Positions 1,840 to 42,604 of a stretch of DNA of 42,604 nt are shown here, in pieces. A program made the position numbers and the translations under genes. The notes beneath the pieces were generated by a model. It ran no database searches and was not told the origin of the DNA. It was given only the letters and a program-made list of their open reading frames with translations. Source of the DNA: a virus; the IMG/VR virus record IMGVR_UViG_3300002063_000003; one strand, written 5' to 3'. Positions within the stretch are counted from its first letter, which is position 1; each line of letters opens with the position of its first letter.

Positions 1840-2217
1840 TTACCTCAGTAAAGTATTTGCTAGTGAATTTGCTAGGTTAGAAGTTATTCTTTCCCTTGAT
1901 TGTTGTGAGCTATTCTGTGCTTGTGCCACACCTTTTAGCCTACCGATTTCTGTATTTGCTTCAGCTATTCGCTCATTCTTTTTCTGCTGAAGAATGCCTG
2001 TCACACCGCCAATTACTCCACCTGCAACTGCACCCCAAGGACCTCCCGTAGCAAAGCCTGTAAGCGCTCCCGAAGCAGCTCCACCAGCACCTGTTGCATT
2101 TTGAGGGGCCTGCTGTGTAGCTTTTCCTAAAGTTCCTGCAAGCACTTGGGAAGGGTCCGTATTGTCCCCAAAGTCTAGTGTTGAGTCAAAATCAAAGTTC
2201 AATTTATTGTTTTCCAT
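1840..2217 (-). CDS. Small glycine-rich (glycine-zipper-like) protein
   Basis: 125-aa ORF with the segment GAGGAASGALTGFATGGPWGAVAGGVIGGVTGIL. Start and stop are coupled to the neighbouring genes. Confidence 0.5.
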   Translation of the reverse strand: MENNKLNFDFDSTLDFGDNTDPSQVLAGTLGKATQQAPQNATGAGGAASGALTGFATGGPWGAVAGGVIGGVTGILQQKKNERIAEANTEIGRLKGVAQAQNSSQQSRERITSNLANSLANTLLR

Positions 2218-5994: not shown

Positions 5995-8066
5995 TATGCT
6001 ACCTCCCAAGTGTCTATTCCACCTGCTCCTATTACTCGTTTATATAAGATGCCATCAGAGCCTTCTCTAATTTCTACCGCAATAGCATCTGGGGTTATTC
6101 CTAACATTAGTGTTTCATCATCTTCATTTATTATTGTCAGGGCCGTAGTTCCGTTTTGACTTCTAATTGTAGTCTGGTTGGATACATTTGATTGTACAAT
6201 AACGGTTATTGGTACATCAGCAATGATAACTCCTGGGCTTAAATCTCCCACAAGTTGTACTGGGTAAGTAGTTGCTTCGTTAGCTACTCCACCTGCTGCT
6301 GGATGTTTTTGGTCTTCTTTAGAAGTTATAGTAACTCCATTTCTAGTTAAAGGCACTGTATAAGCTAGATCTAAAGAACTTGTTACATCATTCCACTCAA
6401 ATATTTGGGCTGTACCTTGATATGGGCTTGCTATAGCAATACCAGATTGGCCCCCATCTCCTGAATCATCAATAGACTGAGGTTGTGCTATAACTTGTGC
6501 CATCGCTTTAACTGGCATTAAGGGAGTTGCTTCTAACCCTGCACTATCTGCTCCAGAATATGCACTAACTAATCCTGTCGCTAAAAATCTAGTTGCGCCG
6601 TTTGGTTCATAATCAGCATCCGTTGCACCCGTAACTGTGTCTATTGCAATAGGTGATCCTGGGTTAACTGTAAATGTACCTTCGGCATTATCTCTTACAA
6701 AGTAATCAACATCTGTTCCAGCAAAAGGAGCAGACATGTCACCGCTTCTAGGCCATGTAATACCATCATTTGTTAGTGGCATTACTAATCTAAAATCATA
6801 GAAACCAGGGGCATCCATATTAGCGCCTATACATGCCATCATTTGGTTTTTTCCAGATAATATATATTCTTGTACTCCATCTGTTTGTAGCTGTACAAAC
6901 TCCCAGGGAGATAGTTCAATATCTTCTTGTGCTAATATTGTAGTTCCTGAACCATCTGTAAATTTAATTACATTACTTAATGGTCCATTAACTACCCAAA
7001 CTCTACCCTCATTTGAGTTAGAATTTCTAAATGCAAAAAGGAATGTTTCTTTAAATGAAAGGCCGTAACTTAATAATGGCATTGGGGATTCACTTCCTCC
7101 AGATACATTCTCACTCATACCATAAAAGCCTTGAGTGGAAGTTATAATAGCTCCATTAGTGATACCTGAAAATACAATAGGCTCTCCTAATGACATAAAT
7201 TCTCTGTATAAAACAGTACCAGAATTAAAGTCTGCTCCAGAGGCATATACTTCTACAACATTACCATCTCCTAAAGAAGTTCCTTGAACTCTACCAGTAT
7301 TAGTTTGACCGACAGCAAGTACCGTAAGCCCTGGTTGTCCCGCGTCTGCTAATAATTGTTGCTGTAATCCTAGTACCGATCCCGCAGCGACATCTTCTGT
7401 TTGTGTTGAGTCATTTGTTAACTGTAAAAAATTAGTCCCATCAAACTTTTCTAATTCACCTGTAGTAGTATTTAGTACTATTTGATCTAATGTAGCAGTT
7501 GCCGATAAATTTGTTTGAGGATCGAGGTCACTCACTATTCCAGGTGCTGTCTGGCCAGGGATCCAGTTAGACCCATCCCAAACAAGTGTGTCATCAATAC
7601 TAGGTGCAGTAGTAGTAGTATCTACATCAGAGTGCGTATCTATACCACCATCTGCGCTAATTTTTGTTGTATTGACAGCAATAGCTGTATCTTGGGCTGT
7701 TTGTTCAGATTGTATAGTAGATATATCTGTTGTATTACTAGCAATACTAGTGTCCTGGGCTGCATTAGCTGCTTGGATCGCTGATATATCAGCTGCGCTA
7801 GCAGTTAATTGGACCTGAAGCGCTGCTTCAATTGCATCTACTTCTGCCTGAGTGTATTTATCTAGATCAGTGATATCAACTTCCACATGCGTATGTGGTG
7901 CTGGGGTGGTCTCAGGAAGAGTTCCATCATTAGATGTTTCCATCTCCAGTCCCGGTACTTCAAATAATTCTACGTCACCTGACACATTACCAAAAGATGA
8001 TGTACCATCTTCAACAATTGTTATTTCGCCATCTGCGTCTTTAAAGGCTCTAAATTTTATTGGCAT
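5994..8066 (-). CDS. Tail fibre/spike protein with a large unique C-terminal domain
   Basis: 690 aa. The N-terminal third shares PHTHVEVDITDLDKYTQAEVD and IQSEQTAQDTAIAVNTTKISADGGIDTHSDVDT with 8066..9349. About 500 aa at the C-terminus are unique. Confidence 0.75.
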   Translation of the reverse strand: MPIKFRAFKDADGEITIVEDGTSSFGNVSGDVELFEVPGLEMETSNDGTLPETTPAPHTHVEVDITDLDKYTQAEVDAIEAALQVQLTASAADISAIQAANAAQDTSIASNTTDISTIQSEQTAQDTAIAVNTTKISADGGIDTHSDVDTTTTAPSIDDTLVWDGSNWIPGQTAPGIVSDLDPQTNLSATATLDQIVLNTTTGELEKFDGTNFLQLTNDSTQTEDVAAGSVLGLQQQLLADAGQPGLTVLAVGQTNTGRVQGTSLGDGNVVEVYASGADFNSGTVLYREFMSLGEPIVFSGITNGAIITSTQGFYGMSENVSGGSESPMPLLSYGLSFKETFLFAFRNSNSNEGRVWVVNGPLSNVIKFTDGSGTTILAQEDIELSPWEFVQLQTDGVQEYILSGKNQMMACIGANMDAPGFYDFRLVMPLTNDGITWPRSGDMSAPFAGTDVDYFVRDNAEGTFTVNPGSPIAIDTVTGATDADYEPNGATRFLATGLVSAYSGADSAGLEATPLMPVKAMAQVIAQPQSIDDSGDGGQSGIAIASPYQGTAQIFEWNDVTSSLDLAYTVPLTRNGVTITSKEDQKHPAAGGVANEATTYPVQLVGDLSPGVIIADVPITVIVQSNVSNQTTIRSQNGTTALTIINEDDETLMLGITPDAIAVEIREGSDGILYKRVIGAGGIDTWEVA

Positions 8067-19300: not shown

Positions 19301-20216
19301 TTGTTTCCCCTTATCTGTACCTGGTCAAGTAATAATCTTACCATAATTACATGGGTTTTGTCCAGTTTTGATACACTGCGTTCGCAGAAGGGGAAGTTAA
19401 GTGTACTATAAAGAACATTTTCGCCCTATTTATGTGCTATATAGTACACATTATGGACTACTTTTTAGTCCTTTGACCTGTTTCTTAGTGGCCAGACGCC
19501 CCTATACATATTTACATAGAATTTTATAGAAAAGGTATGCAATTTTACATTTAAAGTGCTCTAAGTGCCCTATATTACTAGCAGAGGGGGCCTAATTTTA
19601 CATAACAGATGTTCATGTGGTGACACCATAGACCCCATGCAAGAGTCATGCCATCCCTAGTGGGGGACCATAAATTTTAGTGGCCCTTATATAGATATTG
19701 TTTATACCTCTACTGATACTTGGCATGGTATGTGCTATTGCAATAAGCTAGCCAGTCCTATAATGAGATGCTGTAGGCAAAGCTGTGCATTAGAGAATGG
19801 TAAATAGCATGATGAATGACATAGTTGGCATGAATGTTGGGCTCCATGTACTCTATCAGTAGCCCTTGCTAAGCCCTATGCTGTCCTCAGATCGAATGTG
19901 TTACCTATATATAGTATCAATAATAGCGGTTTCAATGACTGCGCCGACGCCTAAAGCGTCGAACCTATATGAAACTGTCATGATACTTGATAACGATGAT
20001 TGTTGTATTACTTCACTAGTTCATCTATAATAGAACGGCGAAATTAGGTTGTCAAGTAAATTTTCCCGACATCTAATATACTAGCACTTGAGTGTAAAAA
20101 AGTTTATATTGCCTCATTTTGATACTAGTTATCATTTATTTACTAGCCTATTGCAGAGCGCTAAAGCTCCAGTAAGAGCCCTCAGTATTCGTTTTAATGA
20201 TAGGCAGGTATTCATC
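19301..20216. other. 916-nt ORF-free region: candidate long leader, ncRNA, origin or packaging region
   Basis: The track shows no ORF of 60 or more codons in any frame. My manual scan of ATG-initiated ORFs on both strands found none longer than 29 codons, and none with an SD. Many local inverted and direct repeats. Confidence 0.6.
20027..20055 (-). promoter_or_regulatory. Near-consensus sigma70-like promoter firing leftward
   Basis: On the minus strand: TTGACA (20055-20050), a 17-nt spacer, then TATTAT (20032-20027). Confidence 0.6.
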
Positions 20217-22260: not shown

Positions 22261-22397
22261 TGCATTTTTTACAAAAAAGTTTCAGGCTGTCAATATTTTA
22301 TACAAATGTCATAAGTTTGACACTAATATGCTACAGAATTCAGCTGGGCTGGCCCATGTATTGCATAATACTTAGAATGATTATAAGAAATTATTAT

Positions 22398-22750: not shown

Positions 22751-22926
22751 TGAGAGATAAAAAATGTGATGGAGGCTGTGCTGATTATAATGAATGCCGA
22801 GGTGATGTACAAAAGGTTGTATTAAACTGGGATGGAGATGAGCTTGAGCTTAATTACTGCGAGGAAGCTATATCAACTGACATTGAAAGAGGGTTTAATC
22901 CCCAAATCAAAGAGGAGAAAATATGA
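22750..22926 (+). CDS. Small Cys-containing protein (58 aa, below the track cutoff)
   Basis: MRDKKCDGGCADYNECRG... Start and stop are coupled to the neighbouring genes (TGATG and ATGA). Confidence 0.5.
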   Translation: MRDKKCDGGCADYNECRGDVQKVVLNWDGDELELNYCEEAISTDIERGFNPQIKEEKI

Positions 22927-23291
22927 AATTCTGGGAGGCCATGAGGGCGTTAGAAGAAGGTAAGGCAGTTACAAGGACACCTGAAAGTTACATATATAAG
23001 TACGTTAATAATAAAGTACACCCTAGAATTAGGTTAAAAAGAATGATTCTTGGAACAGATGTCGGGGAGTGGATGCATGATAAAGTATTCACTTCTTTAG
23101 ATACAGAAGCTGATGACTGGGAAATAGCGGAAGAGCCCGACCTTTACTGGCAGTGGAGAACAAAATCAGGTATTATTTTGCATTATGGTGGTTTCTTTAC
23201 TTTTTCAATACATGATTCACAAAAACACGCAGGGCCCTGGATTAAGACAGAAAATGGATTTAAAAAACATGAAACATGGGAGCAATATTAG
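22923..23291 (+). CDS. DUF2829 (Tad2-like) domain protein
   Basis: MKFWEAMRALEEGKAVTR ... LDTEADDWEIAEE matches the remembered DUF2829 pattern F-x-EA-x2-AL-x-EGK-x-V-x-R ... DDWEI. GAGGAG SD. Confidence 0.5.
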   Translation: MKFWEAMRALEEGKAVTRTPESYIYKYVNNKVHPRIRLKRMILGTDVGEWMHDKVFTSLDTEADDWEIAEEPDLYWQWRTKSGIILHYGGFFTFSIHDSQKHAGPWIKTENGFKKHETWEQY

Positions 23292-23485
23292 TGACTAATA
23301 AACAGATACAGTTATTAAAGTACTATGTACAAGTGCCCTATGAACTGCTCAGAAAAACAGAAGGAAGCTCCTTCCCAAATAATTATAAAAAAATTTCTAC
23401 TATACTGGGCAGTAAGTCTGAGGCGGAATTTGTAATTTTAGGAAAACGTTATTTAAATAGAATCAAAGGGGAAACTAGTGAGTAA
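23276..23485 (+). CDS. Hypothetical protein
   Basis: 69-aa ORF. The start may instead be GTG 23291, which overlaps the upstream TAG. Confidence 0.45.
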   Translation: MGAILVTNKQIQLLKYYVQVPYELLRKTEGSSFPNNYKKISTILGSKSEAEFVILGKRYLNRIKGETSE

Positions 23486-25634
23486 AAACATATATAAGGA
23501 TAATTACGCTGAGTATTTAAACAAGGGACTACAGGTAATTCCAGATAAGTATAAATCTAAGATGCCTGCAGTTAAGGGTTGGTCGGATTGGTGTTATAAG
23601 CCAGTGCCACCCGACCAAGCTAATCAATGGGCATCCGATATACCTGAGTCGGGTATATCTCTATGCTTGGGCGAAGCCAGTGGGGTAGTGGCACTAGACT
23701 TTGACGCAGTTGACCCTAAGATCATAGAAATTGTGGAGGCATTACTGCCTGAATCCCCTGTAGAGAAGAAAGGAAGTAAGGGGTGGACCCGCTTCTTTAA
23801 ATACAATGGTGAGCGAACAGGTGCTGTAAAGTATAATGGTGAAGTAGTATTCGAAGTCTTGTCTAGTGGTCGCAAAACTACAATGCCACCGTCAGTTCAT
23901 CCAAATGGGGCTAACTATATTTGGACAGGCTCTGATATATTAGATGCCAATTTAGAAGAACTGCCAATGCTTCCCCCATATTTAGAGAAGCAAATAGAGT
24001 CACTACTTGTTTCCCAATTAGGGGGAGAGAGTAGGGAATTTGGCAAGATTATAAATGGCAGAAACGCAGCCCTTTCTACATATCTGGGAACACTACTTAA
24101 TGACAAATCTATGACAGCTGATTCGACAGTCAAGATGCTCCTGCAGTATGACAAAGATCATAATGAAACCCCATACTTTAGTGATCCTGAAGAACATAGA
24201 CACACTAGTAGTTTTACTAATGCGCTTACATTTTACACAACACATCTAGAATCCATAAACGCAAGAAACTTTAGAGAGAATAAAGAATACCTTGAGCCTG
24301 TAATGCAGGTAGTCGATGATATTGAGTCACTTAAGGAGCGTGCTAGAAAAAAGTCACAAGCGCAGGTAAGTCAAAAAAGCTCAAAAAAGAGAGAGTTTTT
24401 ACTTGCGCCAAATGCTCTCACCTCAATTTGCGAGACGATTGATGCAAACTCCTGGGTAAAACAGCCCGAACTAGCGCTAGGATCTGCACTAGCCATGATA
24501 GCTACACTTGGGTGCAGGAAATTTACCTTTCAGGGGATGGCCCCGAACCTATATATATGTAACATATCACCTAGTGGCACAGGAAAGAATGCTGGGATAG
24601 ACGCTGTTAGAAATATGATGCATGAGAATGGTGCCCACCACTTATTAGGTGCAGGAGACTACGTGTCAAACGCCTCATTAGTTGATTCACTACAATCTAA
24701 GCCGACCAGACTAGATGTTATGGATGAAGTGGGCGGTAAGCTAAAGACTATGAATGGAGGTAAAGCAGAATATGCAGACAAGATTGGAGATATACTCGCT
24801 GAACTGTACACTTCTAGTAACTCTAGATATATGGGAAGGGCCTTAGCATCTATGAATGGAGCACCTTCAGTCAGAGGGGCGTGTGATAAGCCATGTGTTA
24901 ACATATTAGGCGCTACAACCCCTACAGGATTTAGAGAGGGTGTAACTAAAGACGCTATAGCAAAGGGTTTGATGGGTAGGTTTATATTATTTTTTGGGGA
25001 CTCTAAGAATAAATCTGAAAGAGTTAAAAATGTAACTCAGTTACCAGAAGATATAAAGAACCATTTGCATAAACTCGCTAAATTTGACTATAAACAAGAT
25101 GAAGTAAATGCATTGAGTGAGTATCCAAAAGATACCTATGAGATGCAAGCAACTAATGAAGCGAATGCTGCCCTAGATATTATCTTTCGTGAGTTTGATT
25201 CACTAAGGTTAGCTAAAATAGGTACTCCTGAGGCCCCTATTGCAGCAAGGCTATACCAGCAAATGGTAAAACTATGCATGGTACACGCAATATCTAGGCC
25301 TTTTGATAAGCTACCAGAAATTCGCATTGAGGATGTACAGTTTGCTAAAGGGATAATTAAGTGCTATTATGATGAGCTTGAAAATATTGTGACTAAATAC
25401 ATATTTAATTCTAAGCTAGAAAAAGATAGGTATGATGTCTTGGATTTAATAGAGTCTAGGGGAGTTGTTAAGGCGCATGAATTAGTAAGGCTAACACCTC
25501 AGTTTAACAAAAGGCAGCGGCAAGGGGTAATAGAAGACCTAATCGATGCGGAATATATCGGAGTAGATATCGAGAAGGATCTAGAAGCAGGTAAACAGTA
25601 TAACATTTATTATACTAAACCTGATATAGTTTAA
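23478..25634 (+). CDS. Bifunctional primase-polymerase / P-loop helicase
   Basis: Prim-pol motifs VALDFD and SGRKTTMPPSVHPNG..YIW at the N-terminus. Walker A SPSGTGKN and Walker B LDVMDEVG in the centre. Confidence 0.85.
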   Translation: MSKNIYKDNYAEYLNKGLQVIPDKYKSKMPAVKGWSDWCYKPVPPDQANQWASDIPESGISLCLGEASGVVALDFDAVDPKIIEIVEALLPESPVEKKGSKGWTRFFKYNGERTGAVKYNGEVVFEVLSSGRKTTMPPSVHPNGANYIWTGSDILDANLEELPMLPPYLEKQIESLLVSQLGGESREFGKIINGRNAALSTYLGTLLNDKSMTADSTVKMLLQYDKDHNETPYFSDPEEHRHTSSFTNALTFYTTHLESINARNFRENKEYLEPVMQVVDDIESLKERARKKSQAQVSQKSSKKREFLLAPNALTSICETIDANSWVKQPELALGSALAMIATLGCRKFTFQGMAPNLYICNISPSGTGKNAGIDAVRNMMHENGAHHLLGAGDYVSNASLVDSLQSKPTRLDVMDEVGGKLKTMNGGKAEYADKIGDILAELYTSSNSRYMGRALASMNGAPSVRGACDKPCVNILGATTPTGFREGVTKDAIAKGLMGRFILFFGDSKNKSERVKNVTQLPEDIKNHLHKLAKFDYKQDEVNALSEYPKDTYEMQATNEANAALDIIFREFDSLRLAKIGTPEAPIAARLYQQMVKLCMVHAISRPFDKLPEIRIEDVQFAKGIIKCYYDELENIVTKYIFNSKLEKDRYDVLDLIESRGVVKAHELVRLTPQFNKRQRQGVIEDLIDAEYIGVDIEKDLEAGKQYNIYYTKPDIV

Positions 25635-25676: not shown

Positions 25677-26495
25677 ATGAAAAAAACAGTAGAAGAAGGT
25701 GTCTATAGAGATATGTCAAATGAGGTGTACCACCAAAAGAATGGCTACTACTCTAGCTCAGTTCTTAAAGGCGCCTTAAAAGGCGCTAGTTACTTCTTTG
25801 ACACATATGTGCAAGGTACAGGACCAGACATGAGTAAGAATGAGGCAGCTTTGCACCTAGGTAACTATTTACATATAGCCCTACTAGAGCCAGAGAATCT
25901 AGAGAGTGAGTGTGTAGTTTACCCCGCCGCAACCAGATCAGGGAAGAAATGGAAACTATTTAAGAATGATCCCGAGAACGCAGGCAAGACAATTATTACT
26001 ATGAATGAACTAGACAAAGCTGCAGACTTAATTGACTCTTACAATAAATCCGTAGTTGACTTAGATGGGGACGAGATGGAACCTGCCAAAGGACTTTTCA
26101 CTGGAGGAGACGCAGAATTCTCTCTGTTTACAGAGCTCGAGGGAATGCCTGTAAAGGTTAGGGCCGATTATATCATTGATAAGGGTGACTATATGCTTAT
26201 TAGGGACCTTAAAACCACTAGTAGAGAGTGTAACTCTGCTTATCAGGGTCAGTATGTGTGTAATATGTTCAATTATTTCCTTTCTGGTGCTCTATATGTA
26301 GACGCATTTGCAAAGCACTATGGAAAGCCCTGTAAGTTTCAGTTAGTATTTCTCAGCAAGTCTGATTATAATGTGAATGTTTTTGAGATTGGAGAAGAGT
26401 CGATTGAGAAAGGCCGCACAGATTATAAGAAGGCACTTGAGTGTATTAAGAAATGGCAGAAGATTGGATACAGGACTGGACTTAGATATGTATAA
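25677..26495 (+). CDS. PD-(D/E)XK family exonuclease (RecE/DUF3799-like)
   Basis: YHQKNGYYSSSVLK N-terminal motif, then VRADYI ... IRDLKTT (D ... D/E-x-K). Confidence 0.7.
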   Translation: MKKTVEEGVYRDMSNEVYHQKNGYYSSSVLKGALKGASYFFDTYVQGTGPDMSKNEAALHLGNYLHIALLEPENLESECVVYPAATRSGKKWKLFKNDPENAGKTIITMNELDKAADLIDSYNKSVVDLDGDEMEPAKGLFTGGDAEFSLFTELEGMPVKVRADYIIDKGDYMLIRDLKTTSRECNSAYQGQYVCNMFNYFLSGALYVDAFAKHYGKPCKFQLVFLSKSDYNVNVFEIGEESIEKGRTDYKKALECIKKWQKIGYRTGLRYV

Positions 26496-26579
26496 GTTTT
26501 TTACAATGTCAAAGGCTTATACAGTTAAATCAAATTTATGGCTAGTGTAGTTGGCACTAGCATTGCATTAGTTATTATG

Positions 26580-26762
26580 GAGAAGAGGGAGTGTGGAAGC
26601 TGTGGCATATGTAGTGTGGTTACTACCCTTGGCCACTGGAACACATAAGAGCACCTTGTATAAAGATGGTTCGATCATTAGCTCTGTTATGCCGAGTAGA
26701 ATGTTTGAAAGGCTGAAAGCGTAAGGCGTACATAGCACCAGTAGCTGCGGTGCCCTCTTCTC
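26580..26762 (+). promoter_or_regulatory. Structured RNA element, copy 1 (riboswitch-sized leader domain)
   Basis: Perfect 10-bp closing helix GAGAAGAGGG/CCCTCTTCTC enclosing nested hairpins. Shares ordered blocks and covarying helices with 28705-28807. Confidence 0.5.
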
Positions 26763-26779
26763 AACTTTTAAGGAGAAAC

Positions 26780-27040
26780 ATGACAGATAGAGAAACACGA
26801 AACAAGATACTAGCAGATAAGAGTCTACCTATACATAGACACTATAGGGGTTTTTATACTAAACGAGATATGCTAGAGCAGCTTTTAATGGGTTATACAG
26901 TAACAGAGTCTGCCCAGGAATTAGGTCTTACTTGGGGTTCTGCGATGGATGCGATCAAAAGGCTTAGGAATGCAACAGGCCATACATCAACTAACGCGAT
27001 GATTAGGGGATTAGTTAAAAAACATAGAGGATATTTATAA
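26780..27040 (+). CDS. Small LuxR/GerE-type HTH regulator
   Basis: Start refined to ATG 26780 (AAGGAG SD). ESAQELGLTWGSAMDAIKRLRNATGHTSTNAMI resembles the GerE-type HTH. Confidence 0.45.
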   Translation: MTDRETRNKILADKSLPIHRHYRGFYTKRDMLEQLLMGYTVTESAQELGLTWGSAMDAIKRLRNATGHTSTNAMIRGLVKKHRGYL

Positions 27041-27357
27041 TGGGATGGATAGCAAGTATTTTATTAGCATTATGTGGACTACCTCTAGCATATAAGTCAT
27101 ATAAAGAAGGTCATTCTAGAGGCATTAGCCTATTGTTTTTATTAACATGGTTAGTTGGCGAAGTACTAGCATTAGTATATAGCTGGAACAAAGATGTGTT
27201 ACCACTATTGTTTAACTACGGCCTAAACATATTTTTTATTGGAGTAGTGCTGTATTATAAATTAAAGCCCTCGGACCTTGATAGGTTTTTAAAAAATGTT
27301 AGTAAAGAAAGCATAAAGAGTTTAGACGCAATAGAGAATAGTTGGAGGGCAAATTAG
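27040..27357 (+). CDS. 3-TM membrane protein with a PQ-loop/SemiSWEET-like motif
   Basis: CGLPLAYKSYKEGHSRGISLLFLLTWLVGEVLALVYS resembles the PQ-loop repeat (Q replaced by L). 105 aa. Confidence 0.4.
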   Translation: MGWIASILLALCGLPLAYKSYKEGHSRGISLLFLLTWLVGEVLALVYSWNKDVLPLLFNYGLNIFFIGVVLYYKLKPSDLDRFLKNVSKESIKSLDAIENSWRAN

Positions 27358-27536
27358 TGGACAACGCAGTTTTAATATTATATAGTATATTATATATATC
27401 AATAGTTTTAGTAATGCAGGAATACATGAATCACGAGTTTAGTTTACCAGCACTTGTGGTTGGCTGGATGGCTGGCTCACTTATTTCGCTAAAAATAAAA
27501 GATAGAACAGAGGAGAATAATAATGGGGAAAGTTAA
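27357..27536 (+). CDS. Small 2-TM membrane protein
   Basis: GTG 27357 overlaps the upstream TAG, with GGAGGG 7 nt upstream. Preferred over the TTG 27342 start in the track. Confidence 0.45.
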   Translation: MDNAVLILYSILYISIVLVMQEYMNHEFSLPALVVGWMAGSLISLKIKDRTEENNNGES

Positions 27537-27762
27537 AAGTCTTATAGAACATAGGCAGGAGCAATTAGATCAAAGTATTATTGATATGGTTGAAGGCCGT
27601 TTAACACCTGAACAAGAAGAGGAAACCTTAGGGCAAGTTTTAGAAGAAGCTTACAAACAGGAACTCCAAGAAAAGAAACTTTTAAAGGGGCAGGCATTTG
27701 CCCTAGGAGTTTTGTTTGGAGCATTCTGTTTTACTTTAATATTCACGGTAGCCATGATATGA
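27523..27762 (+). CDS. Tail-anchored membrane protein
   Basis: 79 aa with GAGGAG SD. Acidic helical N-terminus and C-terminal TM segment FALGVLFGAFCFTLIFTVAMI. Confidence 0.55.
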   Translation: MGKVKSLIEHRQEQLDQSIIDMVEGRLTPEQEEETLGQVLEEAYKQELQEKKLLKGQAFALGVLFGAFCFTLIFTVAMI

Positions 27763-28109
27763 AATTATATTTTGACATGATGAAGGAGCACTATAATAGG
27801 GAAAATATCATATGCGAAAGCCCAGACGATAAAGTATTAGGTTTTATGATATACTCCCCTATATCAGAAGATAGCGCTTATATTGATAACATATACGTAG
27901 GGCAGCAGCATAGGAAAGACCGTATCGCAAAAAATTTAGTTAAGATGTTAGTAGCAAAAGGTTTTACAAAGCTAATGAGTCATGTGGATATGACAAGTGC
28001 TGTAGCACATGATGCGATTAAGTTTCATCTAGCTATGGGGGCAGAAATACATGAGGCATCTAAAACAAGAATAATATTTTATAAAGATTACCAAGAGGAG
28101 GAGATCTAA
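27759..28109 (+). CDS. Short GNAT-family acetyltransferase-like protein
   Basis: IYVGQQHRKDRIAKNLVKMLV resembles GNAT motif A. AIKFHLAMGAEI resembles motif B. Only 116 aa. Confidence 0.5.
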   Translation: MKLYFDMMKEHYNRENIICESPDDKVLGFMIYSPISEDSAYIDNIYVGQQHRKDRIAKNLVKMLVAKGFTKLMSHVDMTSAVAHDAIKFHLAMGAEIHEASKTRIIFYKDYQEEEI

Positions 28110-28270
28110 TGGCTACATCAGTAGAAAAAGAAAGAAAAGCAATGCGTGAACGCGCAGAAACACTTAAGCTTATTAAAGAGCTTAAAATAGATATTCAGGA
28201 AATTAAAGAAAGCATGGCACAAAAGTGCGGAGCTAAAAAACCAAAAGTAAACAAAGGAGAGAGAGTATGA
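28109..28270 (+). CDS. Small basic helical protein (53 aa, below the track cutoff)
   Basis: TAATG and ATGA coupling to both neighbours, with GAGGAGGAG upstream. Confidence 0.45.
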   Translation: MATSVEKERKAMRERAETLKLIKELKIDIQEIKESMAQKCGAKKPKVNKGERV

Positions 28271-28698
28271 GCCAACCAGTAAGATTGCCAGTAGGTACAC
28301 ATAGTTTTAAAATTAAGAGCATTGTAATTAAACAAGGGAAAAAAGATCCCGAAAGTAAAATTATGCATTTATCTTTTGAAAAGGTGGACGATGATGGAAA
28401 TGCGGATGAAGGGTTCAAGCCAATCAAGGAATTCTTAGGTGTAGTTCATGGGAGCAAGACCTATATGGACATCTCGACGTCTAAGGCAGACGGGTTACTA
28501 CGCAAGTTAGGAGTTGAAGAGGGACTTGCAAAGTTTAATGGAGACCTAGCTGTTCTAGGTACTAAGAACTTTCTTAAGGACTTCATGTTCGAGACCTTTG
28601 ATGCAGATGTCTATGAAGAGAAGAAAGAGCAAACATTTACTAATGAGCAAGGAGAGGACATTACTTTCAAAGCTCGTAGAATCTCATTAGAAGATTAG
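28267..28698 (+). CDS. Hypothetical protein, DUF669-like (possible ssDNA-binding)
   Basis: 143 aa in the replication module. Only a loose remembered resemblance to DUF669. Confidence 0.35.
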   Translation: MSQPVRLPVGTHSFKIKSIVIKQGKKDPESKIMHLSFEKVDDDGNADEGFKPIKEFLGVVHGSKTYMDISTSKADGLLRKLGVEEGLAKFNGDLAVLGTKNFLKDFMFETFDADVYEEKKEQTFTNEQGEDITFKARRISLED

Positions 28699-28704
28699 TT
28701 AATA

Positions 28705-28807
28705 TTGAGGAGGTGCGGAAGCAACGCACGCGAAAGATAATAGAGTGCTACGAACATAAGGTACTGCCTTAGTATTAGCGATTGCTGGAGTAGCGACCAG
28801 CCCTCAA
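28705..28807 (+). promoter_or_regulatory. Structured RNA element, copy 2
   Basis: Closing helix TTGAGG/CCTCAA, block AGGTGCGGAAGC, block ACATAAG, and hairpin GCTGG-AGTAGCGA-CCAGC followed by CCTC. Colinear with copy 1. Confidence 0.5.
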
Positions 28808-28853
28808 AAAGCGGTCCTACAGCGTTTCTGTAGTTGCTATTTGTTAGCTGACA

Positions 28854-28875
28854 GCCAGGAAAGACTGGCATTTTT
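28854..28875 (+). terminator. Weak terminator-like hairpin plus T-tract
   Basis: GCCAG-GAAAGA-CTGGC followed by A-TTTTT. The stem is only 5 bp. Confidence 0.3.
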
Positions 28876-28888
28876 ATAGGAGAAAAAA

Positions 28889-29059
28889 ATGAAGATAATA
28901 TATAAAACAAGCGCAGGCTATAATTTAAATGAGGTAGAATACCCATCCTTAGAGTCTTTTAAAGAAGATATGGGGGATGAAAATTATGGTGAAACTATAG
29001 AATATGTCTATATAGATAGCAAAGGTGAGTTGAGTATAGGCTTTTTAGATTTTACATAA
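28889..29059 (+). CDS. Small hypothetical protein (56 aa, below the track cutoff)
   Basis: AGGAG SD 6 nt upstream of ATG 28889. MKIIYKTSAGYNLNEVEYPSLESFKEDMG... Confidence 0.5.
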   Translation: MKIIYKTSAGYNLNEVEYPSLESFKEDMGDENYGETIEYVYIDSKGELSIGFLDFT

Positions 29060-29067
29060 GGAATTAT

Positions 29068-30891
29068 ATGATTAACTACGAGATAAAGATTTGGAATGGG
29101 GAGAGGCTTGAGGGCCCTATCAGTTTTGATACTGAGACAGATATTCAGCCCTTCCACACTAGAGATCACAAGTTAGTTACTTTCCAGGCTTACGCAGGAG
29201 GCAAAGATGCTTACCTAGTTGAGCGTGAAGATATAAACTTCTTTCTTAAAATGCACAAATCAAATGTATTTGTAGCACAAAACGCACCTTTTGATGTCTC
29301 TGTTCTTACAGAAAATGGATATATTGATTGGGACTACTGGTTCTATAAGATTGACAATGACAAACTACACGACACTAAATTACTATATATACTACTTAGG
29401 CTAGCAGCAATCGGTATGACGCCACCCATGTCTAGCTTAAAGGAGATATGTAGAGTTATGTTGGGTAGGGACATTGATAAGAATGCAGACATCAGGTGTA
29501 CCTTTGATCAATACGTTGATAGGCCTTATTCCGAGATTAGTGAAGAGCACCAGAAGTATGCTCTTGATGATTCAGTTCACACTTATGACGCGTACAAAGT
29601 GCTACTCAAACGCATTAGAACACACGATACTAAAGAGACACTACTAAGTCACGCTTATCAGATAAAAGGCGCTATTGCCCTAGATCAGATACATAAGAAT
29701 GGTATTGGATTTGACCTAGCCCAGAAGGAAGAAGTTCTTAAGGGCATTTACAAAGAGAGTGACATACTAGAAAGAAGATTGGCGCTATGGGGATGGGTAA
29801 AAGGGAAGCCAGGTAACAAAGGGGCTCTATTCAGAGCACTGGACGCACTCGGAATACTTAAGGAGCTGCCCCTATCACCTAAATCAAAAGAGCCAAGGAC
29901 AGGCGGAGATGAACTAGCACCTCATATGGATAAACAGTTTGTAAGAGATTACCTGCGCTTCCAAGAGATTGATAAAGCGGCATCTTTTATTAGAAATATT
30001 GATAGTGAACGGATTCACCCTAGATATACGACCATACTTAATACAGGCAGAACTAGCTGTTCAGGTAAGTCTGGTGACCATGTCGCATGCAACATTCAAC
30101 AGTTACCAAGAGTAGGGGGCATACGTGAAGTTTTCATCCCAAAGAAGGATCATGTTTTTGTTGACATTGATTATGACTCACTAGAATTAGCGACCTTGTC
30201 GCAGGTATTGATTAACTACTTTACTGAAAGTAACCTAGCAGATGTTTTAAACGAAGGTAAGTGCCCTCATGTGGCCACAGCAGGAAACATCTACAATAAG
30301 TTCGTAGGTAAATGCACTAAACAGAATATGGGCGAGATTAACAAAGATGAGAGACAGTTTGCAAAGATTGCGAACTTTGGTTACCCAGCTAATATGGCAC
30401 CTAGTACTTTCGTAGACTACTGTAAGGGATACGGAGTTAAGGTTGATCTAGAGCAGAGTGAAGCTATCAAGGAAGGTTGGCTAAAAGCTTATCCTGAGAT
30501 GAGGCAATACTTTGATCTACCTAGAAACTACATTGATGGGTCTATGAAGTATTGGAATGAGGAGAAGGGTATTTGGGACACAAAGGATACATACTGGCAA
30601 ATGAGCCTTACAGGACGTAAGAGAGCACGCTGCACGTATACTGCATTCCTGAACACACACTTCCAGGGATTAGCGGCTGATGGGGCCAAGATAGCCTTAT
30701 ATGAGTCATTCAAAGCAGGGCTTAAGATGGTTGGGTTTGTGCATGATGCTATAATCTATGAATGCCCTAAAGAAGATGGTAATGCCGTGTTAGATAAAGC
30801 TAGTGGTATTATGGTCAATGCTATGCAACAGGTTGTGCCTAGCATTACAATTAGAGTCGAAGGCGAAATAAAGGACCGATATTCAAAATGA
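29068..30891 (+). CDS. Family A DNA polymerase with a 3'-5' exonuclease domain
   Basis: Exo motifs FDTETD, NAPFD and YALDD. Pol motif A DIDYDSLELA, motif B RQFAKIANFGYP, motif C VHDAIIYE. Confidence 0.92.
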   Translation: MINYEIKIWNGERLEGPISFDTETDIQPFHTRDHKLVTFQAYAGGKDAYLVEREDINFFLKMHKSNVFVAQNAPFDVSVLTENGYIDWDYWFYKIDNDKLHDTKLLYILLRLAAIGMTPPMSSLKEICRVMLGRDIDKNADIRCTFDQYVDRPYSEISEEHQKYALDDSVHTYDAYKVLLKRIRTHDTKETLLSHAYQIKGAIALDQIHKNGIGFDLAQKEEVLKGIYKESDILERRLALWGWVKGKPGNKGALFRALDALGILKELPLSPKSKEPRTGGDELAPHMDKQFVRDYLRFQEIDKAASFIRNIDSERIHPRYTTILNTGRTSCSGKSGDHVACNIQQLPRVGGIREVFIPKKDHVFVDIDYDSLELATLSQVLINYFTESNLADVLNEGKCPHVATAGNIYNKFVGKCTKQNMGEINKDERQFAKIANFGYPANMAPSTFVDYCKGYGVKVDLEQSEAIKEGWLKAYPEMRQYFDLPRNYIDGSMKYWNEEKGIWDTKDTYWQMSLTGRKRARCTYTAFLNTHFQGLAADGAKIALYESFKAGLKMVGFVHDAIIYECPKEDGNAVLDKASGIMVNAMQQVVPSITIRVEGEIKDRYSK

Positions 30892-34387: not shown

Positions 34388-34433
34388 GTTGGCACATGCC
34401 TTGCTCTATAGCTAATAACAACAAGGAGAAAAT

Positions 34434-34673
34434 ATGTTATATTTAAACAGCAAAAACGATATTATTTACAGAGCAGCAGAAGGGTTTGGCACAGTTATAT
34501 TCCAAGACGGCTCAGTCAGAGTCACATCGTGGGATAAAATGGTAGCATTTAATTATAGATCTATTGATGAATTTGAGACTGCTATAATTCAAGGGGATTG
34601 TGGTGTATATACACTAGATATGAAGTCGTATAGGAGCCCTATTGTAGATAAAATTGTAGAAGGGATGGAGTAA
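34434..34673 (+). CDS. Hypothetical protein
   Basis: 79-aa ORF with AAGGAG SD. Confidence 0.55.
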   Translation: MLYLNSKNDIIYRAAEGFGTVIFQDGSVRVTSWDKMVAFNYRSIDEFETAIIQGDCGVYTLDMKSYRSPIVDKIVEGME

Positions 34674-35134
34674 TGCTGTCTATAGGTGATACAGTTTTAT
34701 ATCAGGGCGGCAATTACAGAATAACCCGCATTCTGGTAGAATCGTGTGGAAGAAAAGCTTACGAGATAACTTCAATAGATAGATCTAATATAAGAGGTTT
34801 CAGGTATGATCACGAACTAGAACTAGTTTGCAAAACCCCAAAAACTGTAGGCGCCGATAGATACAACGAAGGTAAGCCACAGTTATCTTTGATAGACCCA
34901 AACATACTTTATGCCTTGGCTCGAGTATTAGAATTTGGGTGCACTAAGTACGAAATAGACAACTGGAAGAAGGGGCAAGAGAGAAAAAAGATAATGGACT
35001 CCCTCCTACGTCACACTGTAGCTTTAATGTCCGGTGAAAATAAAGACCCTGAGTCAGGTCTCTCTCATGGGGCACATATTGCAGCTAACATTATGTTTCA
35101 CGAGTATTACATGAAAGAAGGTATGTATGGGTAA
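34673..35134 (+). CDS. dATP/dGTP diphosphohydrolase (MazZ-like) domain protein with an extra N-terminal domain
   Basis: YNEGKPQLSLIDP..ARVLEFGCTKYEIDNWKKG..LLRHTVALMSGENKDPESGLSHGAHIAANIMF matches the remembered family pattern. Confidence 0.6.
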   Translation: MLSIGDTVLYQGGNYRITRILVESCGRKAYEITSIDRSNIRGFRYDHELELVCKTPKTVGADRYNEGKPQLSLIDPNILYALARVLEFGCTKYEIDNWKKGQERKKIMDSLLRHTVALMSGENKDPESGLSHGAHIAANIMFHEYYMKEGMYG

Positions 35135-41165: not shown

Positions 41166-42604
41166 TACCTATTTCTCATGTACGTATCGTGTTCAGATGC
41201 TATCTCGACTTCAAATCCTGTTAATAGTATGTTTTCATATATGTTAGTATTTGAAAATATGTACCTAATTACCCTAGTTTTTTGGGGTTTTAGCCTTATT
41301 CTGCGGTGTTTAGACCTAGGTTCCCCCCAGGGAGTTACACCCCACTCAAATAGGCCCCAACCATCTGTAGGCTCATTAAAATCTAATGTACCTTTTGATA
41401 CTGTAGTATAAGTCCACTCATGTTGTGTTTCGATATCAATTGAGAATTCCGTCTCATCAAAGTTCTGTAATAAAGTATCTAGTGAGTATATTTTTAGTCT
41501 GACGTGCTTTTTAGGAACAGAAGGTTCCCCGTAAGATAGCCAGTTTGAGCCGTATAGCACTTTAACGGCTGCCTCATTGTCAGCATAATCAATATCTGTG
41601 CCTGTATTTAGAGTAGTATTTACTATAAACTCATTAGCGCCACTAGTGCTTAGCTGGTCTTGAACAAAGTATATTTTTTCTTCAAACTTAGCTGCACCAT
41701 TAGCTAGGTTAATATTGTTCCAAACACTCCATGAACCTGTTCTTGAGTGAAAAGCTAAGGTACGTGAGTCAGAACTAAATCTGTTGCCCCCTATTCTTTC
41801 TGGCAAGTTTATAAGTAAGACATCTTCCTCGTGCCAATGGATTGAGAATGCTCTAATAGAGTGTACTTTACGTAGTTCAGTCTCAAATAGGGAATGTATC
41901 TGCTTACTTCGTAAGGTCAATGAGCTACCACTGACTGAGTATACTCCTTTATTTCCCAGAAACCAGAGTTCCCTATTGTACTCAACTATGGACTGGTTGG
42001 AAATACATCCTACATCTTCATCTGACAGAGTGTCTACTTGGAAGTTGGTTCCATTTAACTCTCCTGTGACCACAAATATAGAGTTGGCTTTAAATATGAA
42101 AAGGTTATTATCTAGTGATTGAATACCAGAGTTTGCTCCTCCGTCCCTTGACTCGGTTATAAACGAGGCTAGTTCGTAGAACCTGTGTGTATCTCGAATG
42201 TCTTCAAATAATACTTTATCTACATCATCAGGTGTTCCTGTAAGGACTATCTGATTTCTCCATATGTCTATATAGGCATACTTGCTAGTATCTACTGTTG
42301 AAAACAAAGGTAAGTCAAAGGTCTCTACTAAATCGTCATCTAAAGTTGTGTCTACAAATGTGGTAGTAGTTGTTAAGGGAAGTTCATCGACTACGAAGAA
42401 AGTATTGCCCTCGTCTACCGTCCTTAGTATTAAAACAGTTGCATTAGTTGTGCCATACTCTTCATATATAGTAGCGTCAGGTAAAGTAAGGGATGCAGCT
42501 CCAACACTATCTAATACATCTGAAGTTACTGTGTAGGTCGGGTTCCCTTGATTATCTTCAAACTTATATACAATGCGGTATTGATAAATCTCAGTTCCCG
42601 TGGA
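41165..42604 (-). CDS. Large virion structural protein, C-terminal part (continuation of 826..1)
   Basis: The track ORF 41165..42307 starts at an internal TTG. Manual check shows the frame stays open through 42604 and matches the frame of 826..1 via the 49-bp repeat. Confidence 0.7.
   Translation of the reverse strand, partial: STGTEIYQYRIVYKFEDNQGNPTYTVTSDVLDSVGAASLTLPDATIYEEYGTTNATVLILRTVDEGNTFFVVDELPLTTTTTFVDTTLDDDLVETFDLPLFSTVDTSKYAYIDIWRNQIVLTGTPDDVDKVLFEDIRDTHRFYELASFITESRDGGANSGIQSLDNNLFIFKANSIFVVTGELNGTNFQVDTLSDEDVGCISNQSIVEYNRELWFLGNKGVYSVSGSSLTLRSKQIHSLFETELRKVHSIRAFSIHWHEEDVLLINLPERIGGNRFSSDSRTLAFHSRTGSWSVWNNINLANGAAKFEEKIYFVQDQLSTSGANEFIVNTTLNTGTDIDYADNEAAVKVLYGSNWLSYGEPSVPKKHVRLKIYSLDTLLQNFDETEFSIDIETQHEWTYTTVSKGTLDFNEPTDGWGLFEWGVTPWGEPRSKHRRIRLKPQKTRVIRYIFSNTNIYENILLTGFEVEIASEHDTYMRNR
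42556..42604. repeat. Terminal direct repeat, right copy (identical to 1-49)
   Basis: Same 49-mer as bases 1-49. This implies a circular or terminally redundant assembly with a 42,555-nt unit. Confidence 0.97.

Follow-up and report, generated by a model that had tools for sequence, protein, structure and literature searches.

A large, strand-specific and covarying phage RNA family with members in two gaps of a phage replication module

Two gaps in the replication module of the phage genome in IMG/VR record IMGVR_UViG_3300002063_000003 (the window; 42,604 nucleotides (nt)) were found to hold members of a large, strand-specific, covarying phage RNA family. Copy 2 lies in the gap at 28,699–28,888 (gap 2) and copy 1 in a gap further upstream (gap 1). 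The original prediction had described gap 2 as the second occurrence of a conserved structured RNA with covarying helices, followed by a riboswitch-like expression platform. The first part was borne out by 100 distinct model-aligned members, in which 99.2% of helix cells are paired and double changes occur in 15 of 17 pairs; the second is largely refuted by genomic context. The reading favoured here, tentatively, is that the element may be a stable, free-standing RNA module that offers its two invariant loops to a conserved partner, and not a ligand-sensing leader.

The RNA family and its two copies in the window

A permissive blastn search of gap 2 against GenBank phages returned one borderline match (E = 0.01), to the unrelated phage MW202573, which is identical at 27 of 29 positions in the last hairpin of copy 2. 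The MW202573 locus has the full architecture of the family: a different closing helix (P1; GUAGAGA/UCUCUAC), a 2-nt joint, a first hairpin (P2; GGCG-GGAAGCAGA-CGCC), about 137 nt of variable sequence, and an identical last hairpin (P3) that directly abuts the closing helix on its 3′ side (P1′). An exact scan of IMG/VR with the P3 18-mer retrieved 17 contigs, and a scan with the exact P2 consensus 19-mer taken from these contigs retrieved at least 120 viral contigs, giving at least ~140 family recoveries from the two exact-word scans. In nearly all recovered contigs the parts follow in the order P1, joint, P2, variable region, P3 and P1′, the sequence of P1 differs from contig to contig, and independent minimum-energy folds of members give the same three helices. 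Members are 97–231 nt long, and the GC content of their loci ranges from 39% to 72%. Strict two-block patterns, searched in IMG/VR and GTDB, had given only chance matches in coding DNA with P3 unpaired; they required the window P1 bases GAGGRR/GCCCTC, which are not conserved in the family.

In the family, P1 may have any sequence and is 6–25 base pairs (bp) long, with a mode of 9 bp, and its 3′ strand directly abuts P3 without a spacer, as it does in both window copies. The 2-nt joint, which is CG in 92% of members and GA and AG in the window copies, leads into P2, a 5-bp hairpin with the 9-nt loop GAAAGCAGA. A variable (“cargo”) domain separates P2 from P3, a 5-bp hairpin with the 8-nt loop nnUAGCGn. 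The conserved unpaired bases are the joint CG, the loop 2 sequence, an A before P3 (92%) and the UAGCG core of loop 3. Sequences complementary to the loops were not enriched in the variable domains, and an internal pseudoknot was rejected.

Base-pairing of the helices is retained through extensive sequence change. In an alignment of 44 members, 99.5% of helix cells are paired and 14 of 17 pairs show double changes. In the alignment of 100 distinct members, with 99.2% of cells paired, controls in which the register was slid gave 31–43% pairing. Members were selected with P1 pairing required and with P2 fixed by the search word; for P3, only an AGC string in the loop was demanded. The P3 stem, whose pairing was thus not selected for, has 99.6% of its cells paired, and each of its five positions shows double changes. 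G·U pairs outnumber A·C pairs by 25 to 4 overall and by 9 to 1 in P3, indicating that the fold belongs to the given strand, as expected for RNA.

The two window copies are not recognised by plain comparison of the gaps. Local alignment gave a score of 21, compared with 18.6 ± 2.5 in shuffles, which is not significant, and its best segment was the Shine-Dalgarno region; MAFFT misaligned the two gaps, folding z-scores over the whole gaps were weak (−1.9 and −0.8), and a covariance model built from copy 2 alone (R1) found no match to copy 1, the insertions and deletions not being bridged. A structural descriptor does recognise them. It combined GTGCGGAAGC (at most one mismatch), a 5-bp hairpin with a loop starting AGTAGC, and a P1 helix, 5 bp or longer, between the sequence immediately 5′ of the block and that immediately 3′ of the hairpin. 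It matched exactly the two sites in the window, on either strand, and nothing in 200 dinucleotide-shuffled genomes. A second covariance model (R2), for which 44 unrelated phage sequences from IMG/VR and no window sequence were used, was run over both strands of the entire window (85 kb searched, filters off, E ≤ 10), and its only two matches were copy 2 (28704–28808, 33 bits, E = 8.8e-5) and copy 1 (26582–26760, 10.3 bits, E = 2.2, with the correct ends). Membership of the family is certain for copy 2 and probable for copy 1.

Copy 2 is a minimal member, equal in size to the shortest IMG/VR members. Its minimum-energy fold in isolation yields P1, P2 and P3 (z = −2.4), and its P3 loop is an exact common family variant. 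Copy 1 is divergent; folded in isolation it gives P1 and P2, its 9-nt P3 loop contains UAGCU, one core base off the family consensus, and its P2 loop is interrupted by an inserted hairpin, an insertion that member L032 shares at the same place, after GGAAGC. The register P1, 2 nt, GUGYGGAAGC is common to both copies. The parts of both, together with their surroundings, are listed in Table 1.

Table 1. Features of the window discussed in the text
Feature	Position	Strand	Remarks
Sigma-54-type motifs, TGGCAC-N5-TTGCW	19638-19653, 19739-19754	-	
Sigma-54-type motif, TGGCAC-N5-TTGCW	22350-22365	+	
PrimPol	23478-25634		Rightward replication module
PD-(D/E)XK nuclease	25677-26495		Rightward replication module, 5′ of gap 1
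Sigma-54-type promoter motif TGGCACtagcaTTGCA	26552-26567	+	Pattern TGGC-N7-TTGCW
Left direct repeat TTATGGAGAA	26575-26584	+	9/10 match to right repeat
Copy 1, divergent member	26580-26762	+	183 nt; R2 match, strict descriptor
Copy 1 P1	26580-88 / 26754-62	+	9 bp; flush with P3
Copy 1 joint	26589-90	+	GA
Copy 1 P2	26591-95 / 26642-46	+	GUGUG/CACAU
Copy 1 P2 loop, inserted hairpin	~26601-38	+	GAAGC...GGAA, interrupted by the hairpin
Copy 1 variable domain	26647-734	+	
Copy 1 P3	26735-39 / 26749-53	+	Loop AGUAGCUGC
Right direct repeat TTAAGGAGAA	26768-77	+	With left repeat brackets copy 1
Seven small genes	between gap 1 and gap 2		Rightward replication module
143-aa protein (p143)	28267-28698		Gene preceding gap 2
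Copy 2, minimal member	28705-28807	+	103 nt; R2 match
Copy 2 P1	28705-10 / 28802-07	+	6 bp, TTGAGG/CCTCAA; flush with P3
Copy 2 joint	28711-12	+	AG
Copy 2 P2	28713-17 / 28725-29	+	GUGCG/CGCAC, loop GAAGCAA
Copy 2 variable domain	28730-83	+	One hairpin
Copy 2 P3	28784-88 / 28797-801	+	Loop AGUAGCGA
Hairpin CTACAG/CTGTAG	28817-28833	+	6 bp; outside family motif (R2 match ends 28808)
Weak intrinsic-terminator-like hairpin	28854-28875	+	GCCAG-GAAAGA-CTGGC then A-TTTTT; pattern scan
56-aa gene (p56)	ATG 28889		Directly 3′ of gap 2
PolA	29068-30891		Rightward replication module, after 56-aa gene
Sigma-54-type motif, TGGCAC-N5-TTGCW	34390-34405	+	

The coordinates and strings given in the original prediction were all correct. 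They include the conserved block, AGGTGCGGAAGC at 28711–22 and AGTGTGGAAGC at 26590–600, and the terminal hairpin, GCTGG-AGTAGCGA-CCAGC at 28784–801 and GCACC-AGTAGCTGC-GGTGC at 26735–53. The proposed closing helix exists in both copies, its extent in copy 1 being corrected to 9 bp, next to a 5-bp P3. The ACATAAG and CCTT-GTAT blocks stand where they were placed, but they are not conserved: they lie in the variable domain, and the ACAT of copy 1 overlaps the 3′ strand of P2. The absence of a credible open reading frame from gap 2 was upheld; small reading frames in the gaps were rejected, with an RBS-like (ribosome-binding-site-like) GAGGAGG abutting GTG without a spacer, and gene callers skip both gaps.

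The statement that the motif has no Rfam family also held in a covariance-model scan. None of the 4227 models of Rfam 15 had a gathering-level match in the window, relaxing the threshold to E ≤ 10 over 26480–28920 gave junk only and no ribozyme family, and no Rfam match overlapped the motif in consensus-like members. The family was found neither in complete E. coli genomes nor in 72,556 PLSDB plasmids. Signature strings of the family gave nothing in full-text literature. A 2023 catalogue of 8,495 unnamed IMG/VR candidate RNAs may contain the motif (PMC10690425). Two likenesses to known elements were considered and dropped: mimicry of the L11-binding domain of 23S rRNA (loops ...GAAGCA... and ...UAGC...), where the loop registers differ, and a resemblance of GGUAGCG to the RfaH ops DNA element, where P3 is too long for a transcription-bubble hairpin.

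Genomic placement and the phage that carries the window copies

The neighbours of the element are heterogeneous. The reading frames downstream of 107 members gave matches to 19 unrelated Pfam families, each seen in at most two members, and share no common function. Members also occur antisense between large genes or convergent with their neighbours, several with promoter-like hexamers of their own; neighbouring genes lie on the opposite strand or are convergent in Pseudomonas phage Persinger, where the element follows the integrase gene, and in L050, L033, L157 and L153, and at least nine opposite-strand neighbours carry firm Pfam matches. A −10-like hexamer is found 4–9 nt 5′ of P1 in 22 of 124 members, compared with 6.3 ± 2.4 at random positions, with a peak there (clear examples are L122, L152, L153, L099 and L110). 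Intrinsic terminators within 120 nt downstream were detected in 10 of 125 members (8%), about three times the 2.9 expected, and directly follow P1′ in L127, L079 and L164. Some members are located inside or beside transfer RNA (tRNA) arrays (L146, L094, L027, L028 and L043), a tRNA lies within 400 nt of 8 of 129 members, and the variable domain of L151 scores as a partial tRNA (31.7 bits). Two model matches per locus recur (L085, L091, L096, L100, L104 and L134, the second in L096 being a 44-nt partial).

Among cultured phages, the Pseudomonas phages PotUPM1 and Orimi01 have the element at the head of an operon beside the repressor gene, and it is located in the early regions of Pseudomonas phage D14H, Ochrobactrum phage POI1126 and MW202573. 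GenBank “hypothetical protein” coding sequences overlap it in MW202573 (L026, 2842–3087) and Orimi01 (L169, 2501–2974); the annotation is probably wrong throughout in MW202573 and in its first part in Orimi01. In L030/L040, the element and a promoter-like stretch lie between 22-nt direct repeats that duplicate a gene junction, and in L037 the element is flanked by 18-nt direct repeats. The module seems to spread in cassette form, at times along with a promoter-like −10 hexamer (L030/L040). Contig L035 also has a gathering-level match to the Rfam Betaproteobacteria-1 small RNA (1911–2028, minus strand), ~1.3 kb from its family member.

The window is a complete phage genome of ~42,555 bp, circularly assembled or terminally redundant, with identical 49-nt termini (1–49 and 42556–42604). 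No nucleotide relatives were found among 50,697 GenBank phages, and no cultured phage has a PolA more than ~25% identical to the one encoded here; the same genome, with both gaps base-identical, is present in three other public assemblies (Logan SRR4188653, JGI 3300002061 and ENA ERZ23497466). The PolA-nearest relatives (L004–L019, 37–59% identity) have the same gene order. The expectation that homologues would occur in related phages failed for these relatives, which lack the RNA motif, and succeeded for unrelated phages, in which the helices are preserved.

The sigma-54-type promoter pattern TGGC-N7-TTGCW has seven sites in the window, compared with 0.86 expected. The motifs occupy intergenic gaps at the heads of operons, and are also present in syntenic gaps of relatives (L004, L005 and L006–L008), where palindromic AGTGTCTAA-N3-TTAGACACT boxes were observed 5′ of the motif. 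A dependence of this phage group on host sigma-54 and an activator is possible; as far as we know, it would be unusual for phages. With the standard −12 spacing, the motif in gap 1 would start transcription at ~26578–80, at the first base of copy 1 P1. The relatives pass from the same promoter straight to the ribosome-binding site (RBS), identifying copy 1 as an insertion into a short leader.

The hairpin at 28854–75 (5-bp stem with four GC pairs, 6-nt loop, then A and TTTTT) qualifies by pattern as an intrinsic terminator, albeit a weak one by usual standards, and is located immediately 5′ of the RBS of the gene that starts at 28889. In the motif-free relatives, a hairpin and U-tract of different sequence likewise precede the RBS of PolA or of the preceding small gene (L004, ~7960–7990; L005, ~7935–7960; L006/L007, just before the PolA start). 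The hairpin therefore looks like an operon feature of its own; the small GC hairpin, conserved in place in all close relatives, may act as a partial terminator or in the translation of the polymerase gene. Between P1′ of copy 1 (26762) and its Shine-Dalgarno sequence and ATG, reading of the sequence and a pattern scan found no terminator-like hairpin with a U-tract.

Several observations were made on other genes of the window. No homologues of p143 were found in a protein-collection search; same-position proteins in L004–L007 have the C-terminal tail ...TFKxR..L... in common with it, and distant homologues probably exist, given this tail. Judged by its gene position, p143 could be a single-stranded-DNA-binding protein. 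An N-terminal dATP/dGTP diphosphohydrolase domain (PF18909, E = 5e-26), which the relatives have too, is encoded at 34673–35134; domains of this type belong to phage toolkits that deplete a canonical deoxynucleoside triphosphate where a modified base is used. A weak match to the Tad2-like Thoeris anti-defence domain (E = 0.0015, under the curated cut-off) was seen at 22923–23291, where the early operon starts.

Candidate roles of the element

A self-contained stable RNA is favoured because of the heterogeneous neighbours, the free orientation, the promoter-like hexamers, the placements in tRNA arrays and the tRNA-like order of parts. Under this reading, copy 1 would be transcribed from the sigma-54-type promoter that abuts P1, and copy 2 as part of the operon. 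The module would fold shut through P1, would probably be trimmed from the transcript as tRNAs are, and would persist as a stable small RNA whose invariant loops bind a partner conserved across hosts, be it a protein or host machinery for recognising tRNA-shaped RNA. Excision would sever the replication-gene transcript both at the 5′ end and between the p143 and p56–PolA genes. A broader proposal, held with slightly more reserve, is that the family constitutes an unrecognised, abundant class of phage small RNA. Its tRNA-shaped cassette scaffold might engage, through the loops, a defence factor or host machine whose conservation extends over the Proteobacteria and further, for instance as a decoy for a tRNA-recognising enzyme or an immune nuclease, or the class might be a new class of ribozyme.

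The likeness to tRNA lies in the arrangement of the parts. The two ends pair as a closing helix; a 2-nt joint leads to the first hairpin, a variable region comes next, and the 5-bp stem of the final hairpin adjoins the 3′ strand without a spacer. The tRNA-array placements and the one cargo domain with a partial-tRNA score may be added. Many observations weigh against the favoured reading. The family loops are unlike those of tRNA and lack D-loop and T-loop signatures, a true anticodon arm is missing, and the motif is not called by the Rfam tRNA model. ARAGORN found no tRNA in the window and none inside 129 elements; a tRNA or transfer-messenger RNA (tmRNA) identity was rejected, relaxed thresholds yielding junk only. 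P1 is not fixed at 7 bp, and an encoded CCA end is weakly enriched. The R2 match to copy 1 is not significant alone, 92% of members have no terminator within 120 nt downstream, many lie 20–50 nt ahead of an RBS and ATG, and ~63% are co-oriented with the next gene, a proportion that comes from a crude gene caller, gene calls in GC-rich loci being crude as well.

Other phage and bacterial RNAs offer partial parallels. Species 1 and 2 of T4 (rnaC and rnaD) are, according to GenBank annotation, small stable phage RNAs co-transcribed with a tRNA cluster; to our knowledge their function is still unknown. T4 rnaC (L170, 4909–5047, minus strand) contains the octamer GAGUAGCG, the P3-loop signature of the family, twice, these being its only occurrences in the 12 kb examined; the GUCGCUA hairpin loop of rnaD is complementary to UAGCGAC. 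However, R2 scores neither RNA (best local score 5.6 bits) and the rnaC octamers fall in predicted stems, not loops, so that a link to the family is a lead only. The PeSL cassettes of T4-type phages, each a promoter plus a simple terminator hairpin, are likewise short non-coding cassettes, sometimes with a promoter-like −10 hexamer, which sit between unrelated genes in many phages and are sometimes bracketed by a duplicated target sequence; they differ from the family, which is a 97–231-nt multi-helix RNA with invariant loops. YrlA Y RNAs similarly have a closing stem formed from two ends, and a few family members have a tRNA-like inner domain with D- and T-arm-like sequences, but we know of no YrlA counterpart of P2 and P3. 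A YrlA or Y RNA identity was rejected: Rfam matches at E ≤ 0.1 on the members with tRNA-like cargo were to tRNA and tmRNA only. The Ro/Rsr (TROVE) family was absent from the Pfam matches of the scanned flanking reading frames, among which no targeted search for it was made.

The main rival, unlikely but the strongest of the alternatives, is a cis role on the transcript, with the element acting as a promoter-proximal leader that makes RNA polymerase resistant to terminators, in the manner of HK022 put or lambda nut, or that protects or processes the 5′ end of the mRNA. Such a role fits both window copies well, but not the family overall. The predicted sigma-54-type transcript starts where copy 1 does, two terminator-like hairpins follow shortly 3′ of copy 2, and across the family the −10-like hexamers abut P1 above chance and downstream terminators are enriched; the co-orientation of ~63% of members and the frequent spacing of 20–50 nt before an RBS also keep a cis role in play. 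The parallel with put and nut extends to small structured RNAs that are often promoter-proximal at the heads of phage operons, to positions by the immunity region in two Pseudomonas phages (in PotUPM1 and Orimi01 the element sits by the repressor, where lambdoid nut and put sites sit), and to the common occurrence of two copies per genome, which differ by compensatory changes. The put-type rule, always upstream and co-oriented, holds for the window copies and several cultured phages; it is broken by the members with opposite-strand or convergent flanks named above, including those with firm Pfam neighbours. The members within tRNA arrays also speak against a cis role. HK022 put consists of two adjacent stem-loops without a closing helix, and it was rejected as a relative, the best R2 score over the HK022 genome (12 bits, E ~1) lying outside the early leaders. 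A bare 5′ stabiliser, moreover, would need no invariant loops.

It is improbable, judging from sequence and predicted fold, that the element is a self-cleaving or otherwise catalytic small RNA, in which the invariant loops would dock as an active site and the C-G joint would be reactive. The size, the multi-helix junction, the variable closing helix with an optional inserted domain, and the intergenic placement in phages in either orientation, near tRNAs and sometimes in two copies, would all suit a ribozyme; twister, pistol, hatchet and HDV-like ribozymes have similar genomic habits, and the CG joint is highly conserved. However, no ribozyme family matched even at E ≤ 10, the window joints are GA or AG, and the conserved bases are found in terminal loops and not in junction strands.

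Equally doubtful is a signal in single-stranded DNA, for priming, nicking or recombination, whose hairpins would fold in DNA and spread with a mobile cassette. The direct repeats that flank L030/L040, L037 and copy 1, the loose tie between orientation and neighbouring genes, the position of both window copies in the replication module between PrimPol/nuclease and PolA, and the integrase gene adjoining the Persinger element are all compatible with such a signal. It is opposed by −10-like hexamers positioned to start transcription at P1, by the placement of members in the same orientation within tRNA arrays, by the absence of a consistently nearby nuclease, relaxase or transposase, and by the negative plasmid search; the G·U excess also fits RNA, though G·T is tolerated in DNA too.

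Finally, a metabolite- or ion-sensing riboswitch with the downstream hairpins and U-tract as expression platform, as originally proposed, is very improbable. In its favour, copy 2 is followed by a hairpin and then by a terminator-like hairpin with a U-tract ahead of the 28889 gene; P3 and that terminator have CCAG/CUGG strands that could in principle compete, as read from the sequence; and in a minority of members a terminator directly follows P1′. Against it, the downstream genes share no function, 92% of members and copy 1 have no nearby terminator, the motif-free relatives keep the hairpin and U-tract before the PolA RBS, the conserved bases form no junction pocket but lie in two hairpin loops, and some members are antisense or convergent.

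If the family is as unstudied as Rfam and the literature suggest, it would rank among the more frequent conserved non-coding elements of phages. It occurs in cultured Pseudomonas and Ochrobactrum phages, which makes it directly testable. The family would correct annotations, namely the hypothetical proteins in MW202573 and Orimi01, and it accounts for the two largest gaps in the replication module of the window phage, which are apparently inserted cassettes and not ancestral regulatory leaders. The invariance of the loops across such different hosts points to a conserved partner, whose identity could reveal a new way in which phages handle the RNA machinery or immunity of their hosts.

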